Below, piece by piece: positions 5,620 to 20,000 of a DNA stretch of 20,000 nucleotides. The DNA lies in NCBI RefSeq assembly GCF_004010195.1, contig NC_057719.1:47621217-47641216 (forward strand), given 5' to 3'. The first letter of the stretch is position 1. Each line of letters starts with the position of its first letter. The notes beneath the pieces are model-generated. The model saw only the letters and a list, made by a program, of their open reading frames with translations. It had not been told where the DNA came from and did no database searches. Source of the DNA: Chiloscyllium plagiosum. Taxonomy: Eukaryota. The position numbers were made by a program, and so were the translations under genes.

Positions 5620-5746
5620 TCAGTTCTTAATAAGAGTTAGAAACTCCTCACGGGTCTTCGGGTCTTCCCGGAAAACACCTAACATGGTGCTGGTTACAGT
5701 TTTACTGTTCATCTTTTGCACTCCCCTCATCACCATACACATGTGC
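5620..5746 (-). CDS. GCH1: GTP cyclohydrolase 1, last coding exon 6 (127 nt including TGA): [41 protein letters not shown]
   Basis: Acceptor ctctctctttgtAG. HMCM motif with the third Zn ligand. Stop TGA at 5620-5622; C-terminus nearly identical to vertebrate GCH1. Confidence 0.97.
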
Positions 5747-10631: not shown

Positions 10632-10716
10632 GTGGCTTCAATCACCACTCCGACACCTGCAGGCTGTAAGGCTTCTGTGATCGCTTTCGCAATTTGTTTG
10701 GTGAGACGCTCTTGTA
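10632..10716 (-). CDS. GCH1: GTP cyclohydrolase 1, exon 5 (85 nt): (V)[27 protein letters not shown](T)
   Basis: Acceptor ttgcctgtcaacAG, donor CAC|GTgagt. 85 nt; QERLT motif. Confidence 0.97.
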
Positions 10717-10921
10717 CTGTTGACAGGCAAAATAATATACTTGTATGAAATGAGCTCCGGATTAACTACTGAGTGAAGATGGGATATTACAACAATTTAA
10801 TTATGCATTTTCATTATGTTCTGAATAAAAATTCCTAATTTGTATTGGCCCAATTTATTCAAAGTAAATGTGTACAAATCCATGACATATGTATCACAAT
10901 ACACAAGTATATTAGATCATC

Positions 10922-11130
10922 GATGGAAATGTGTTGCTGGAAAAGCGCAGCAGGTCAGGCAGCATCTAGGGAACAGGAGAATCGACGTTTCGGGCATTAG
11001 CCCTTCTTCAGGGCTAATGCCCGAAACGTCGATTCTCCTGTTCCCTAGATGCTGTCTGACCTGCTGCGCTTTTCCAGCAACACATTTCCATCTCTGATCT
11101 CCAGCATCTGCAGACCTCACTTTCTCCTCC
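10922..11130. mobile_element. Penelope-derived hairpin element (family 1, young, near-perfect 83-bp stem)
   Basis: Arms 10922-11004 and 11010-11092 (1 mismatch), 5-nt loop, tail 11093-11130. 14-bp TSD tatattagatcatc at 10908-10921 and 11131-11144. Confidence 0.9.
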
Positions 11131-11876
11131 TATATTAGATCATCATCATTTATTCTTGGAAATTAAAATAAGGACAAAAACTTATCCATTAAATAGTTTT
11201 CATATTTATCTATGCACTTTTTAAAAAACTGCTGATTATATTATGACAATTTTTAAAATATTAATAGAACCACCAGGTAATAGCTGTTCCATGAGGCTTA
11301 TTTATATATAGTGTTATTAAAGGATACAGTCTAAAATTATTTTTTTTTAAAAAATCATAGATTCATAAGTATATCTTGAACTTTTAAACAGAGATTTTAC
11401 TGAGGAAAAGACATTCATTACAACAACATTTATGGCACCTGCAAGGAGCAGAGAACACAACTAGGGTCATACATTCTGTAGAATTTTAAGAGGATGGTCA
11501 TATGGTCCAGTTTAAGTAGGATAAGATTATACCATTTTTGAACGGAGTTTTGTTTTTACCTATCCAAAGAACACCTGCCCATTGTTACCCCTCTCTTTCT
11601 TTGAAATTCCTCTCAGCAAAACATTTCAGCTGAAATCCCACCAACAGTCATCTTTACTCATGGATAATTCCTGAAGTAGATTTTTTGGCAACTATCCAAT
11701 TATCTGAAACACTATGAATTCAGCCAACAACTGTTCCAGGAAGACAACACAGTATCACCTCAGCAGCAAAGAACATCATTGTCTATCTATTAACAGCTAT
11801 CAGATGGTCTCTTTATGAATGCCTGGCTGAGCTCCAAAAATAATTCACTTAGTTCAGCAAGTAAAGCATAAACAGT

Positions 11877-12635
11877 GAGTTTTGAGAAGATTTGTAGCGC
11901 AGGTTAAGGTTCTGGGTGTAGGTTTGCTCACTGAGCTGGAAGGTTCAGATGTTCCATCACTATACTAGGCAACATCTTCAGTGAGCCTCCGAATAAAGCA
12001 CTGATGGTGTAGCCTGCTTTCTATTTATATGTTTGGGTTTTCTTGGGTCAGTGATGTAATTTCCTGTGGTGACATCATTTCTTATGGTGATGCCATTTCC
12101 TGTTCTTTTTCTCAGGGGGTGGTAAATGGGATCCAAGACAATGTGTTTGTTGATAGAGTTTTGGTTGAAAGACCTTGCATGAACTGTAACAAAATTACAT
12201 TGGACAAACAGGCAGAAAACTAGCCACCAGGATGCATGAACATCAACTAGTCGCAAAAAGACATGACCCACTCTCACTCGTATCCTTACATACAGATGAG
12301 GAAGGATACCACATCAACTGAGGCAACACATCCATCCTAGGAGACAAGCCAAACAGAGACACACACACAAGAATTCCTAGAAGCCTGGCATTCCAACCGA
12401 AACTCTATCAACAAACACATTGACTTGGATCCCATTTACCGCCCCCTGAGAAAAAGAACTAGAAATGACATCACCACAGGAAATGGCATCACCAGCTCAA
12501 GGAAACCCAAACATATAAATAGAAAGTGGGCTACACCACCAGTGTTTCATTTGGAGGCTCACTGAAGATGTTACCTAGTATTGTGATGAAATGTCCAAAA
12601 ATGAACCTTCCAGCTCAGTGAGCAAACCTACATCC
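11877..12635 (+). mobile_element. 5'-truncated Penelope-like retroelement: GIY-YIG endonuclease remnant plus pLTR, with an inverted pLTR copy at the 5' end
   Basis: PCMNCNK-(frameshift)-YIGQTGRKLATRMHEH from about 12173, then EFLEAWHSNRNSINKHIDLDPIY. 11912-12168 is the inverted copy of about 12391-12635. 14-bp TSD aaagcataaacagt at 11863-11876 and 12636-12649. Confidence 0.9.
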
Positions 12636-13505
12636 AAAGCATAAACAGTTTGAAGTGGAATAGAAACTTGTGTTGACTTTTATATTACCATGTAACAACC
12701 TGGTCTTTCTTTGAAAGTTTTTCCACATTTGTATGTATATTTACATAAGATTGAGAGATCTGCTATGGATAACAGCTTTTTGAAATTGAAAAGGTAAGAG
12801 GGAAATATATTTTGATGGAAATATTGAATGATTGCCAGGTAAAAGAAAAACAACAGCCAAAATTACTCAAATAGGAATGTGCAGGAATCCCAAATTGGGA
12901 TGTATCTGCCATTCTTAAATACATCATGAATCAGCAAAAATCCTGGCATTGGACCCTGTCTTTCTTGTTTCAATCTTTATCTGTATTTGTTACATTTGTT
13001 CTATTTTGCTTGGTTAGGCTTTATTTTGAAATGTCTCTTCTCTGAATGTTTTCCACACACACTGTCTTGAGGATTTTTCTGCATCTTTGATTTTTGGGTG
13101 CAACACGCAGAATTAAAATGGCATTTATGCAAAGCTGAAATATGGCCCCTCAGAAAAGCCCATATTTCTACAGATACGTTAGCCTGATTTTGTTTACCAA
13201 ATCGTTTAAAAATTCTTGCCATTTGAGTGCAGAGTACAGCTTTCGTTTCTTTTGATCCTATGTCTTTAATTGTATAAGACCATAATAATAATCATACATC
13301 AGAATAAAATGATTATAATTATTCCATTTTTGATAGATTGTTTATTTGGTGATTTATATTTAAACAGTGGCTCCACTAATTTTGGATAATTATCACTGTT
13401 ATCATATACTTGGTATTAGAAAAAAAGATCACACTTTAAAATGGGGCTAGAATGATTTAAAAATGAAGATAAATACTAAATAACATTTTTAAATGTAATA
13501 CTTAC

Positions 13506-13537
13506 CTTGGAGTCTCCTACTGTAAATTTCAACAATT
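13506..13537 (-). CDS. GCH1: GTP cyclohydrolase 1, exon 4 (32 nt): (R)IVEIYSRRLQ
   Basis: Acceptor ttttctttttcAG, donor AAG|GTaagt. 32 nt; peptide matches human exon 4. Confidence 0.96.
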
Positions 13538-14787
13538 CTGAAAAAGAAAATCAGGCACTATTTTTAATATTAAGTCTGACATTCCAGTGAGTAAATTAGG
13601 GAACCACATACTTCTTTAACATAAATGCTAAAGTAATAATGCAGCAAACTAACTGGCATTGTATATTGAAACATATGTTATTCATTAAAAATGATTAGAT
13701 TACTGTTTCCACTTATCAAAGTCATCAGAGTTTTTGAGAGTGAGGTATAACATCGTTTTAGCCTTTCATGTAAAAATATGTTTGATTAGTTGGAGCTACT
13801 ACTGTACTTGTTACACTTGCATGAGCCACAGTAGAAATATTTCAATGTGTTGTGACAAATAAAACTTCTCTTATACCCAAACTATTCCCAAATGTTTTAA
13901 AGATTTATTTGAATATGGTTGTGTTTTAAAGTTCAGATTATTTGCTTTAATGTTATTCATTTGAAATAAACTGAAGCATATGAGTTAACGATCTATATAA
14001 AAAGACTGAAATAAGGATATTTTGAAATGTGAAAACATGCTTCATTACTTGAATGGCTAAAAATTACAGACAGATAGGTATTGAACATTTCTTTGTTTAT
14101 AAAAAGAACTATATCATATTATCCTATAATATTTTCTACAGATAATGGAAGCATAAGAAAAATGTTTCAGTCACAGAGAAGCTTTGTAAAATAAAAGGAG
14201 TTGAAGGGTTTCCATTCTCTGGTTTGGTTGGTCAGGTGAATTTTCATTTCAAGCTCACTGAAGTGCATGTGCCCCTACCCTGAAGGTCATATAAAATGTC
14301 AGTGCTTCATGGGTGATCAATATCAAGATAATAAGGAATAAAAGTTTCTTTTTTTTAATGAAACAAGTTGTGCTTTTTTAAAAAAAATAATCTTCCTGCA
14401 GTCATATAGCCCTTCACTGTTGTATTTTCAATGTAAATGACTATCTTTTGAATATACATTGATTGTAATGTTTCAGTCTTATAAGTAAATTGAAGAATTG
14501 CATGCTTCTTAAAAAGAAATGCAAAAATAGTGATCTGAAAAAACTAACTTGACATCCTGTATTTAAAACAATTAACAGATAAGTAATTGTTTTGTAACAA
14601 ATGGAATCAGGATTTTTTTCAAGTGCATGAAAACCAGCATTTTTACTTTAAGTAGGGACATGTTTGATGGTTAGAGCTACTGTACTTTCTGTCACACTTA
14701 TCAGATGTAATCATATTTGAATAATCAGCTTATGTTTACTTGGGTCACTCAAGTTATGTTTAGTATCGACTGTAAAGTGTAAACACA

Positions 14788-15164
14788 TCATAGTGTCATT
14801 GAGACGTACAGCACGAAAATAGACCCTTCGGTCCAACTTGTCCATGCCAACCAGTTATCCTAAATAAATCTAGTCCCATTTCCCAGCATTTGTCCCATAT
14901 CCCTCTAAATCCTTCCTATAAATCTCCCCATCCAGATGCCTCTTAAATGTTGTAATTGTACCAGCCTTCTCCACTGCCTCCAGCAGCTTGTTAGGGCTTA
15001 TGCCCGAAACGTCGATTCTCCTGTTCCCTGGATGCTGCCTGACCTGCTGCGCTTTTCCAGCAACACATTTCCAGCTCTGATCTCCAGCATCTGCAGACCT
15101 CACTTTCTCCCCATACACCATCACCCTCTGCATGAAAATGTTGTCCCTTATGTCCTTTTTAAAT
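14788..15164 (-). mobile_element. CR1/HER1-type LINE 3' end interrupted by a family-1 Penelope-derived arm
   Basis: Reverse complement is homologous to 9050-9373. The sequence is continuous across the insertion (cagcttgtt|ccatacacc). Confidence 0.85.
14993..15110 (+). mobile_element. Single arm plus tail of a family-1 Penelope-derived element
   Basis: Near-identical to 11010-11127. No partner arm and no TSD seen. Confidence 0.85.
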
Positions 15165-16022
15165 GTAACATGTATAAGCTTTCTGTATGTATAACTGAGG
15201 AGAATTTCAACCTATGGAATATTTCAATTTTAAAGCTGTCTGCAAAGCAATACCTCTTATTTTCCCTGATTAGTAGTAGCATAGCATACTTTAACACGAG
15301 GAGTCGTACTTAAATACGCCATATATTTTGAAAGATATATAAATCTGAAAGGTTACAAAAATACTTATGTGAGTCAGGCTGAACGTTAATAATAGGTATT
15401 TAAATGTAAACTCTTTGGTCATTTTGTTCAATAGCTAGGAAATGAATTGTAAGTGTTGTTATTACTGGCTTGGCAGGTTTCGTCAAAATAGAATCACACA
15501 TTTATTATAAAATGTCACAAGTTTGATCAATATATACAGCTTTAATGTACTTCAATACTAAAAAGTTTAAATTAAGAATCCAGCAATATGTGACTGCATT
15601 ACTAATTGATTTGTGATTACAGAAAGAAAGCAGAACAGCTTGTTTGATATTTCTATTACTCTCCTAGAATGGTGAATATAGCAGACAAAATTCTGACTAT
15701 CCAGAAATAAACTATTCAGAATAATACTGCACTAAGATAGATAGTTAAAGAAAAAAGCAATACAAATACAAATGCAGCTTGAAGCTAAGAAGGTATCCGT
15801 TTAGTCCTAAAATGTTTTTAACTTTGAGAATCATCAGTAATACATTCTTTAATTATTCTGTATAAATTAATAACTTCTTAACACACATTATCCTCCACTT
15901 TCTTCAATAAAATTTAAATATTACAATTTAAGAATGAATGTACAAGGAAAAACAAAATAATGTCATTGATTTGGAGTAATTAAGCCCTATTTGACTCTCA
16001 GCCATTGTCAATCAGTCCTTAC

Positions 16023-16078
16023 CTGGCAAGCTTGCTGAGACCAAGGAGTCGTTTTTCAGGTAGATAACCTATATGCAC
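16023..16078 (-). CDS. GCH1: GTP cyclohydrolase 1, exon 3 copy B (56 nt): VHIGYLPEKRLLGLSKLA(R)
   Basis: Acceptor gttttctttccatcctgtAG, donor CAG|GTaagg. 56 nt as in human exon 3 (VHIGYLPNKQVLGLSKLAR); GLSK motif intact. Confidence 0.95.
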
Positions 16079-16786
16079 CTACAGGATGGAAAGAAAACAT
16101 TGACTACACCTGACCACACACAGAAGGGACCAAGAAAATTCTCAGCCAGGTCAAAATTGAAGTATCTGTAGACAAGAGAGATGCTGACATTTTGTGATGG
16201 GTCCCGAATCAGTATGAGGCCAAATGTGTGCAATGGAATGACCATTCAATCATGAGCAGCCCTTTGGAATAAATAGCAAGCTCTGAGTAATATGCCTTTA
16301 GAGAAAACTGCTCATTCAAATTCAAGCCAAATGAACTAAACTATACAGTACTGATTTTCTAAAGCTAGCAGCAGCCAGTGCTGTATATCTCAAGTCTTTG
16401 GCAAAACATTAATTATAAAAAATTCCAGCAATAAAATTATTTTACTTATCCAAGCCAATGACACCCACAGTCATATGGGTACATCTTGAGCACAGAAATG
16501 TTATAATATTCAGTACTTAAAATTAAAATAATAACATTTTGTTTCATTAAAGAAGATACACATGCACATACAATTGCAGCAGCTTTAGCATTAGTTTTCT
16601 GTCTTTTGTCTAACCAAAGACTGAGGGTATTGCCACAGATAACAACAGTAAGAGAAATGCAGCCTTTGTTTCATTGGGTGCCATTTCCAATCTAGTCTGG
16701 AACAGTGAGCACTCAACCAAAAGTACAGCATCTATCGCTCCTATTTGTTGTATCTGTCTCTGTCACAGGCACTTGAGCCTAGTTAC

Positions 16787-16842
16787 CTGGCTAACTTGCT
16801 CACTCCTATAACTTTTCTGTTTGGTAAATAACCAATTGAAAC
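16787..16842 (-). CDS. GCH1: GTP cyclohydrolase 1, exon 3 copy A (56 nt; putative mutually exclusive exon): VSIGYLPNRKVIGVSKLA(R)
   Basis: Acceptor ctgtctcctttttttcAG, donor CAG|GTaact. Exactly 56 nt, phase 0 to phase 2, open frame, homologous to the GCH1 exon 3 peptide (IGYLP...GxSKLAR). Confidence 0.88.
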
Positions 16843-17564
16843 CTGAAAAAAAGGAGACAGTTTGAAATTCACTAAATAATTCTCAATTGCACAACTTTAT
16901 TTATAATTATTAATATATAAATAGCACTCCAGCAACTTTAGTGACCTCAAGTCAGGATGGACAGAGGCGAAATACTAAAGCATGAGGAATAACAGTAATT
17001 AATGATAACTGAAGCAAGAAGCTCCAAGAACAATGTAATTAAATATACTGCTGCAGTTACTTTCCCTATTAACAAATGTAAAATAAAACTGGTCTATAAA
17101 CTAAAAAACCTTCTGCCGAGCAAGGAGAACAGAACTGTAAGAACAATACAATCTTAAAGCATACTTTGACCAGAAAATGAAGAGAATGTGTTTCTACTTG
17201 CTATAAAACATAGACTAGAATAAATGGAAAAATATAATTGTTATTGAATGGTTTCTTCAGGCATTATAGTCTATAACAATAATAATTTTAAAATTTCCTT
17301 CCAGAGCATAATGAGTTAAATATAACTATGTAATTTGTTTTTGCAATTTATTGCTGTCATTGTCAGGTTGGACAAAGTTCTGCCTATTACGATCTAGTTT
17401 AATTTGGTGACATCTGCCCTACAGCATTTGCTGTATTCCTCAAAGTGCATTGAAATAAATGTCAAGATAAAGGAGGGTAAATTATCCATTTTCTTTTGAA
17501 AATTAATATTTGCATTCCTTACCAAAAAGTTACAAGTCAGGTTTTGGAACTGTGATTCACATCA

Positions 17565-17771
<207 letters not shown>

Positions 17772-17894
17772 TCAAAAGACAGGTCACATATTAAAAAGCA
17801 AATGACACATTAAATTGATTACATTTCTTGCTGCTAAACACCCAGTGCAGGATTGGGGAGTGATGGGGTATAGGTTGTTTAGTAAGATGAAAAA

Positions 17895-18750
17895 TAGATG
17901 GAATCAGCCATATGGCTTCTTGAGTCTGCACTACCATTCAATAAGATTATGGCTAATCTGATTTTGGTCAGATCTTTACCTTCCTGTGTGCTTCCCATAA
18001 TCCCTGATTGCTCAATTGTTCAGAATCTCTTTCATCTTTGGATGTATTCAACTATCATTGTCCAGGGTAAAGAAACTAGATGTTTAACCACCCTTGGGGA
18101 AAAATAATCCTCTTCATTGCTGTTTTAAATAAAAACTTCCAATTCTGAAACTATGCCCCGAAATCTGGATTTCCCCACAAACCTCCTCTCAGTATCTACT
18201 GTTAAACCCCACAGAACCTCCTATGTTTGAATAAAACCACCTATAATTCTTATGAATTTGAATGAGAATATGACCAACCTTTTCTCATGTGATAACTTCA
18301 TAATAAGGAGCAACCTAGCAATTTTTTCTGAACTGTCTGCCATGAAACTCCTGAAATAAGGAGAACGAAACTGAACATTCTCCATGTCTGCGTGGGTTTC
18401 CTCCGGATGCTCCAGTTCCCTCCGACAATCTAAAGATGTGCAGGTTAGGTGAATTGGCCACGCTAAATTGCGCGTAATGTTCAGGGATGTTTAGGTTAGG
18501 TGCATTAGTCAGGGGTCAATGTAGGTAAGGGAACGGGTCTGCATGGGTCATTCTTCAAAGGGTTGGTGTGGACTTGTTGGGCTGAAGGGCCTGTTTCCAC
18601 ACCGTAGGGATTCTATGAATCTATGTACACTGTATCCCAGGTTTGGTTTTACCAATGCCTCAGAGTTGCAGCAAGAGTTCCCTGCTGTTATATTTTATCT
18701 CACTTACAATGCAAGCTGATGTTCCAATGACCTTCTGAATTAACTTGCTT
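17895..18750 (-). mobile_element. Old CR1-type LINE 3' fragment interrupted by an HE1-like SINE, approximate bounds
   Basis: Starts with gaatcagccatatggcttcttgagtctgcactaccattcaataagattatggct (reverse of a CR1 3' UTR) and resumes after the SINE at 18626. Confidence 0.6.
18375..18625 (+). mobile_element. 5'-truncated HE1-like (V-SINE) element
   Basis: V-domain-like gtctgcgtgggtttcctccggatgctccagttccctcc...aaagatgtgcaggttaggtgaattggcc, and a LINE-derived 3' tail gggctgaagggcctgtttccac...gattctatgaatctatg. Confidence 0.85.
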
Positions 18751-19545: not shown

Positions 19546-19675
19546 AACCGAGTCATTAAACCTAGATCTGTAACTGCATGCTTAATTTTTATGTTTCATG
19601 TGCAGACCTCTCTGTGCCAGAGTATTCTGTAGCAACACTTCATTCAAATAAAATTCTGCTTTTCTATGCATCCAG

Positions 19676-20000
19676 ATTTCAATGCAAGGGGCCTAACAGG
19701 GAAGGGCATGGTTAGGAACATGGACTGGGATACCATAGCAATTACGGAAACGTGGCTCAGGGATGGGCAGGACTGGCAGCTTAATGTACCAGAATACAAA
19801 TGCTATAGGAAGGATAGAAAGAGAGGCAAGAGAGGAGGGGGAGTGGCATTTTTGATAAGGGATGGCATTACAGCTGTGCTGAGGGAGGATATTCCCGGAA
19901 ATACATCCAGGGAAGTTATTTGGGTGGAACTGTGAAATAAGAAAAAGGATGATCACCTTATTGGGATTGTATTATAGACCCCCCAATAGTCATCAGAGAA
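19676..20000 (+). mobile_element. CR1 LINE ORF2 N-terminal apurinic-type endonuclease (APE) domain, pseudogenized, runs off the window
   Basis: FNARGL...WDTIAITETWL...YRKDRKRGKRGGGVAFLIR...IWVEL*, then YYRPPNS in another frame. In-frame stop and frameshift. Confidence 0.9.

Follow-up and report, generated by a model that had tools for sequence, protein, structure and literature searches.

An apparently ancient tandem duplication of gch1 exon 3 in sharks and sturgeons and the putative second form of GTP cyclohydrolase I that it would encode

The gch1 gene of the shark Chiloscyllium plagiosum carries a real tandem pair of exon 3, two neighbouring 56-nt copies named 3A and 3B, within the 20,000-nucleotide stretch of DNA analysed here (the window). 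The pair is probably best read as an ancient duplicated exon pair from which one copy is picked per mRNA, with 3A encoding a minor, regulated second GCH1 with predicted altered kinetics. According to this model, (i) exon 3 of gch1 would have been duplicated in tandem before the split between cartilaginous and bony fishes; (ii) selection at the protein level would have been maintained on both copies; (iii) the spliceosome would take one copy per transcript, with 3B as the default; (iv) 3A would provide the minor form, probably turned on in particular tissues or stages; and (v) either choice would lead to a predicted 248-aa GTP cyclohydrolase I.

The two-copy gene lies on the minus strand, with exons 2-6 inside the window and exon 1 outside it (G000:C10:47663905-47664240). 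In the order of the transcript, the minus-strand elements comprise (i) exon 2 (17655..17764, 110 nt), common to both forms, which codes the CEHH zinc-ligand motif and ends in phase 0; (ii) a GT-AG intron of 812 nt (16843..17654); (iii) exon 3A (16787..16842, 56 nt, VSIGYLPNRKVIGVSKLAR), the minor alternative copy, which corresponds to the RefSeq isoform X2 (P0126); (iv) an intron of 708 nt between the two copies (16079..16786); (v) exon 3B (16023..16078, 56 nt, VHIGYLPEKRLLGLSKLAR), the dominant copy and counterpart of the single exon 3 of mammals; (vi) exon 4 (13506..13537, 32 nt), which starts in phase 2, and exon 5 (10632..10716, 85 nt), both common to the two forms; and (vii) exon 6, coding as far as the TGA stop (5620..5746). 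Exons 3A and 3B each display a pyrimidine-rich AG acceptor (...TTTTTTTCAG and ...CATCCTGTAG, respectively), a GT donor (GTAACT and GTAAGG), a phase of 0 to 2 and an open frame.

The rest of gch1 is intact, with exons 1, 2, 4, 5 and 6 all located, and a 401-base stretch around 3A occurs once in the genome assembly. The exons of the window match the C. plagiosum GTP cyclohydrolase 1-like isoforms X1 (P0121) and X2 (P0126), exon 6 matches GCH1 proteins at 93-100%, and both the best matches and the RefSeq names of the gene are GCH1. The features of the PF01227 family are present, with similarity across the core, the CEHH zinc ligands, the third Cys and the recognition Glu; C139, H141, H142 and E181 are invariant in alignment A1, and C210 is nearly invariant. 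A tree computed under masking of exon 3 places the shark protein, on a short branch, among the gch1 sequences and apart from the two gch2 groups, whose branches are long, the gch1 fork itself being unresolved. Repeats accompany the gene: a SINE-like element of very high copy number occupies ~14800-15150 in intron 3, and a 123-nt part of it recurs at 11010-11132, giving an inverted pair of 91 nt whose arms lie 5 nt apart (region 10914-11132); another inverted repeat pair stands at 11903-12646, and ~19620-20000, in intron 1, resembles what we take to be a LINE retrotransposon endonuclease fragment.

The two copies share 35 of 56 nucleotides and 12 of 19 amino acids, differ synonymously in six of the 11 complete conserved codons, and agree at 10, 15 and 8 of 18 sites in the three codon positions, respectively. 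As a chance control, the best other 56-mer among the 39,886 in the window reaches 28/56 against 3B, and a BLOSUM scan of the window scores the exon-3 copies 90 and 87, with the next best at 20. The introns flanking 3A and 3B match at chance level (22/100 upstream and 29/100 downstream). The pair displays what is looked for in two neighbouring homologous exons: equal length, the same phase, intact splice sites and a similarity far above the window background. A preliminary description of this DNA had reported two 56-nt homologs of exon 3 with AG acceptors and GT donors, in phase 0 to 2, separated by a 708-nt intron and flanked by dissimilar introns; its coordinates and counts were all reproduced, a recount gave the same nucleotide, residue and synonymous-codon values, and the measured intron matches agree with its last point. 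A third or degenerate copy of exon 3 was found neither in the window, nor in the 30 kb upstream, nor in 30 kb of a gch2-like paralogue (from before exon 2 to exon 6). No GCH gene beyond gch1 and this paralogue was found in the genome. The paralogue (G000:C9:32949653-32993884) is laid out in exons as gch1 is, but has one exon 3 (score 79, next 23), with H153 and L165.

The reading frame constrains how the pair can be used. With 3A alone or 3B alone, the frame stays open to the normal stop in exon 6; inclusion of both copies brings a stop at nt 8 of 3B, 166 nt ahead of the last junction, and with neither copy the frame ends at nt 7 of exon 4, 111 nt ahead of the last junction, so that only one copy fits per mRNA. 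The mutually exclusive use proposed in the preliminary description is borne out to this extent. An early stop well upstream of the last junction leads to mRNA decay, and from the positions of their stops the double-inclusion and no-copy transcripts should be subject to nonsense-mediated decay. The simplest mechanism of exclusion would combine regulated choice with decay, steric exclusion being unlikely because the 708-nt intron is too long; the donors of 3A and 3B are ordinary GT sites. Pairing between the intron RNAs was considered as a cause of exclusion and rejected as unsupported, the best duplexes (-21.7, -24.9 and -24.1 kcal/mol) being equalled by 11, 12 and 5 of 30 shuffles, respectively. 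The inter-copy intron also contains one UGCAUG (16561-16566, ~220 nt downstream of 3A) and one ACUAAY (at about 16591-16595, minus strand), each a single match within chance. We take the former to be an RBFOX-type and the latter a QKI-type site, as leads only.

Conservation was followed in protein models, a sample with at most 15 members listed per cluster (e.g., 15 of 114 or 15 of 206). A 3A-type model is found in four of the 17 cartilaginous fishes sampled (C. plagiosum, C. punctatum, Scyliorhinus canicula and, among rays, the sawfish Pristis pectinata); the remaining 13, Callorhinchus among them, display 3B-type models only. In the X1/X2 pairs of C. plagiosum, C. punctatum and Pristis, the differences are confined to seven exon-3 residues. 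Among chondrosteans, each of the two gene copies of the sterlet Acipenser ruthenus has an X1 (3B-type) and an X2 (3A-type) model, and the GenBank model P0143 of the paddlefish Polyodon spathula comprises a 3B-type segment together with a peptide identical to shark 3A. At the protein level, both forms are modelled in C. plagiosum, C. punctatum, Pristis, A. ruthenus (two loci) and Polyodon, and 3A also in S. canicula. In five species, RefSeq X2 models join exon 2, 3A and exon 4 without loss of frame. P0143 of Polyodon is malformed: exon 2 and an intron-derived linker occur twice, the first time followed by 3A and the second time by 3B, as a prediction artefact or a duplication in the local assembly might produce.

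The 3A peptide of the shark is identical to those of S. canicula and Polyodon (19/19 each), agrees at 18/19 with Pristis and with the sterlet model P0373, and at 16/19 with the other sterlet copy. For comparison, shark 3B agrees with chondrostean 3B at 16/19, and the exons common to both forms are identical at 34/36 and 74/80 positions between shark and sterlet. The divergent sterlet copy, P0372, carries V152A and G164C, the latter at a position where G164 stands in 394 of 395 exon-3 segments; these changes look like an error, or like decay in a copy made redundant by genome duplication. V165 occurs in eight of the 395 segments, seven of them 3A copies and one a metagenome protein of bacterial type, and its near confinement to 3A marks 3A as one orthologous group. 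Since 3A has been kept in a ray, a catshark, the sterlet and the paddlefish, the exon pair is older than the split between cartilaginous and bony fishes, itself older than the ray-finned/tetrapod split, which PMC8373072 places at ~425 My in the part available. The earlier proposal, that the tandem duplication is old and that both copies have been under selection, is backed by the same distribution.

Two alternatives bear directly on this distribution. A silent or decaying pseudo-exon, with the X2 models as artefacts of homology-based prediction, would fit the lack of a 3A joint among those listed in the expression runs, the G164C change in one sterlet copy and the malformed Polyodon model; it is nevertheless very improbable, for the peptide is encoded independently by each genome, and neutral intron DNA would not hold 18-19 of 19 residues across the cartilaginous-bony split when intron similarity on either side of the copies has already fallen to chance level. 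Still less credible is that exon 3 was duplicated independently in sharks and sturgeons with convergence of the second copies. A single origin does require several losses or annotation gaps, given that no 3A model was seen among those sampled from bichir, bowfin, coelacanth and lungfish; against convergence, shark and chondrostean 3A have S153, K161, I163 and the rare V165 in common, one pair of peptides agrees at 19/19, and 3A is often missing from the annotation even among sharks.

Outside these groups, the ray-finned search gave 68 proteins in which the segment is complete, none of them of 3A type. Among the cluster members listed, none of 74 from teleosts, reedfish, bowfin, amphibians, turtles and birds has a 3A-type segment, and neither does the single coelacanth model or the single lungfish model. 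From these protein models, 3A appears to have been lost in teleosts and tetrapods. In the X1 model P0102 of the bird Chamaea fasciata, an 18-residue insert precedes exon 3 and its start is faintly 3A-like; read-through of the exon 2 donor is the more likely origin. The nucleotide identities within the shark genome (35, 35 and 39 of 56 for 3A/3B, 3A/gch2 and 3B/gch2, respectively) are saturated and give no order of events, and the exon-3-masked tree, with gch1 unresolved and bootstrap unsettled, gives no date for the duplication. Every cartilaginous-fish 3B sampled displays an acidic residue at 159 (E; D in Callorhinchus) and L162, compared with N159 and V162 in most vertebrates. Five cod-family proteins also carry D159, and the Scyliorhinus torazame models P0129 and P0131 are 3B with F at the conserved L168.

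RefSeq automatic annotation already holds both C. plagiosum isoforms, X1 with 3B and X2 with 3A; alternative isoforms in RefSeq are usually backed by RNA-seq introns. Expression was followed in four of 24 listed runs, without tissue labels, mapped onto 13400-17900: one raw single-cell RNA run (X20, of which about 2% was read) and three contig sets with RNA status guessed or unrecorded. The joint 3B-exon 4 is seen in all four runs (one read in X20; contig depths of 48, 35.4 and 17.7), and the joint exon 2-3B in two of the four (runs X1 and X11). No joint involving 3A, whether exon 2-3A or 3A-exon 4, appears among those listed for the four runs, with 30 joint rows obscured by repeat noise from the SINE-like element at ~14800-15150 and lone reads not itemised. 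The preliminary description had inferred that the locus makes two full-length isoforms, which might share decamers, to be checked at these four junctions: the 3B half stands on observed joints, and the 3A half is represented by the RefSeq X2 models and one probable read.

This read comes from X20, where the 3A bin has a depth of 0.4 (about 60 letters), both adjoining intron bins are at 0 and the 3B bin is at 0.36; the bin depth points to one read probably spliced through the 56-nt 3A. In run X1, an unspliced contig spans 3A at an intron-level depth of 2.8; in X11, there is no depth over 3A; and in X14, 3A is not enriched (21.9 compared with 12.7-20.7 in introns), with 3B at 77.6. The X14 contigs break inside 3A at 16801-16830, a position that matches neither splice junction and was not counted as splice evidence; an allele bubble is the more likely cause, and a variant at 16831 (codon 4, third position) would account for it. 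Among Logan (run-assembled) proteins in the sturgeon cluster, five of five carry 3B. In the runs seen, 3B is dominant and 3A minor or restricted in use.

Such low use is also what the substrate of a decay pathway would display, and a regulatory 'poison' exon would explain it differently: 3A would mostly be spliced together with 3B, the frameshift would send the transcript to decay, and the arrangement would tune the amount of GCH1 with no second protein made. The stop after double inclusion, 166 nt upstream of the last junction, suits this role. A poison exon, however, needs no conservation of protein, and the 3A peptide holds 18-19 of 19 residues in three of four comparisons with non-shark models; the X2 models of five species likewise join exon 2, 3A and exon 4 in frame. 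We consider the poison exon decidedly unlikely, and 3A very probably represents a selected second protein.

Isoforms X1 and X2 comprise 248 aa each and differ at seven positions, all in exon 3, which corresponds to human residues 152-170. In human numbering, the change from 3B to 3A comprises H153S, E159N, K160R, R161K, L162V, L163I and L165V, which appear to fall at a strand end, in the loop behind it and just ahead of a helix. Exon 3 appears to cover the end of a β-strand, a loop and the start of the phosphate-binding SKLAR helix, an order taken from a low-confidence AlphaFold2 model of the 3A form (32-row alignment, pLDDT 44.6, pTM 0.34), used loosely for the order of elements. The zinc ligands, E183 and the named human allosteric residues are all encoded by exons common to both forms; the allosteric residues comprise F122, H126, D127, E128, R235, R241 and E243, as listed in the accessible text of PMC7750480, all outside exon 3. 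According to the same text, L165 is discussed as a GTP-pocket residue, and the authors of the rat structure saw a shift of L165 that narrows the pocket on inhibition, whereas L165 displays no such shift in the human structures, contrary to the rat model; the disagreement leaves the regulatory role of L165 disputed. S166, K167 and R170, given among docking pocket contacts in the part of PMC9862521 consulted, are present in both copies.

S153 is the typical invertebrate residue, found in 91 of the 118 proteins for which one search gave the segment in full, a set biased toward 3A-like sequences; vertebrate gch1-3B and gch2 carry H153. The departure of cartilaginous-fish 3B from the bony-vertebrate sequence (E/D159 and L162) suggests that both copies may have specialised. 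The swap would most likely alter GTP binding or turnover through the pocket wall at 163-165, and an alteration of BH4/GFRP feedback is a bare possibility; all seven changes could be near-neutral. Overall, we give about an even chance that the 3A form would differ in catalysis or feedback.

A related alternative takes both forms as real and catalytically near-equivalent, with the pair kept because the surface loop 159-162 meets a tissue-specific partner, or because of a split expression pattern. The changes are mostly conservative, I163 and S153 are common in the family (37 and 98 of the whole set of 395 segments, respectively), and the unusual acidic 159 and L162 belong to cartilaginous-fish 3B, not to 3A. 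What makes near-equivalence unlikely is V165: almost unique to 3A and kept since the shark-sturgeon split, it points to a specific property of the pocket.

A bolder version of the reading of 3A as a minor regulated form is put forward tentatively, and we hold it as somewhat less likely than its negation. Early vertebrates would have possessed a PKM1/PKM2-like switch in the rate-limiting enzyme of BH4/pteridine synthesis, in which a full-length 3A GCH1, its GTP pocket remodelled and its feedback altered, would serve a specific cell type and mix with 3B chains in the decamer; teleosts and tetrapods would have lost the switch, and sharks, rays and sturgeons would have kept it. Because 3A has the invertebrate S153 while gch1-3B and gch2 have H153, the 19 residues of exon 3 even allow a duplication older than the gch1/gch2 split, in which case 3A would have disappeared from gch2. 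The gch1/gch2 split is attributed to early vertebrate genome duplications in the available portion of PMC1890551.

GCH1 catalyses the first step toward tetrahydrobiopterin (BH4); on it depends the supply of this cofactor, which dopamine, serotonin and nitric oxide require, as well as that of pteridine pigments. A second full-length form, almost unchanged for >425 million years, would amount to a natural experiment on residues 153-165 near the GTP pocket, including the disputed L165, and two proteins seven residues apart can be compared directly in a standard assay. A full-text literature search, with most subscription journals outside its scope, gave no paper that reports a duplicated exon 3 in GCH1, although supplementary exon catalogues of shark or sturgeon could list the pair; the sections available of PMC7815744, PMC13387830 and bioRxiv 10.1101/2024.05.22.595308 do not describe it. 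The preliminary description had supposed the pair undescribed, which holds for the papers searched and not for the RefSeq automatic annotation, where both isoforms stand. The exon class is well known; the gch1 pair is present in automatic annotation and apparently not discussed in print.

Two other routes to more than one GTP cyclohydrolase I form are known in vertebrates. Human GCH1 is likewise alternatively spliced, with isoforms of 250, 233 and 213 aa that have alternative C-termini, the 213-aa chain being inactive and reported in decamers with the full-length chain (PMC13002981, as far as its available text goes). The C-terminus is altered or truncated in the human isoforms, whereas in shark gch1 an internal active-site segment is swapped and both predicted products are full length with all catalytic residues. 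The paralogues gch1 (gchIa) and gch2 (gchIb) provide the second route (PMC1890551, in the portion available). The gch2 gene is not simply a 3A-type gene, given that shark and ray gch2 proteins agree with 3A at 15-16/19 and with 3B at 15/19.

As a class, the pair resembles the mutually exclusive homologous exons of PKM, FGFR2 and SLC25A3, which likewise comprise two homologous internal exons of equal length and the same phase, one per mRNA. The available part of PMC8373072 counts 236 human events of substitution derived from tandem exon duplication, 84.3% of which date to the human-shark ancestor; an ancient origin is common to these events and to the gch1 pair. In its supplementary table, 'GCH' gives no match, compared with five each for PKM, FGFR2 and SLC25A3. 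The gch1 pair differs from the catalogued events in that it seems to have been lost toward mammals and that 3A is very minor in the runs seen; human-centred catalogues cannot show a pair lost on that lineage, and any ancient switch between homologous exons that disappeared before mammals escapes a catalogue drawn up from human genes. PKM, too, is a metabolic oligomeric enzyme altered by an exon swap, as GCH1 would be here. In PKM, the choice of exon has a regulatory role.
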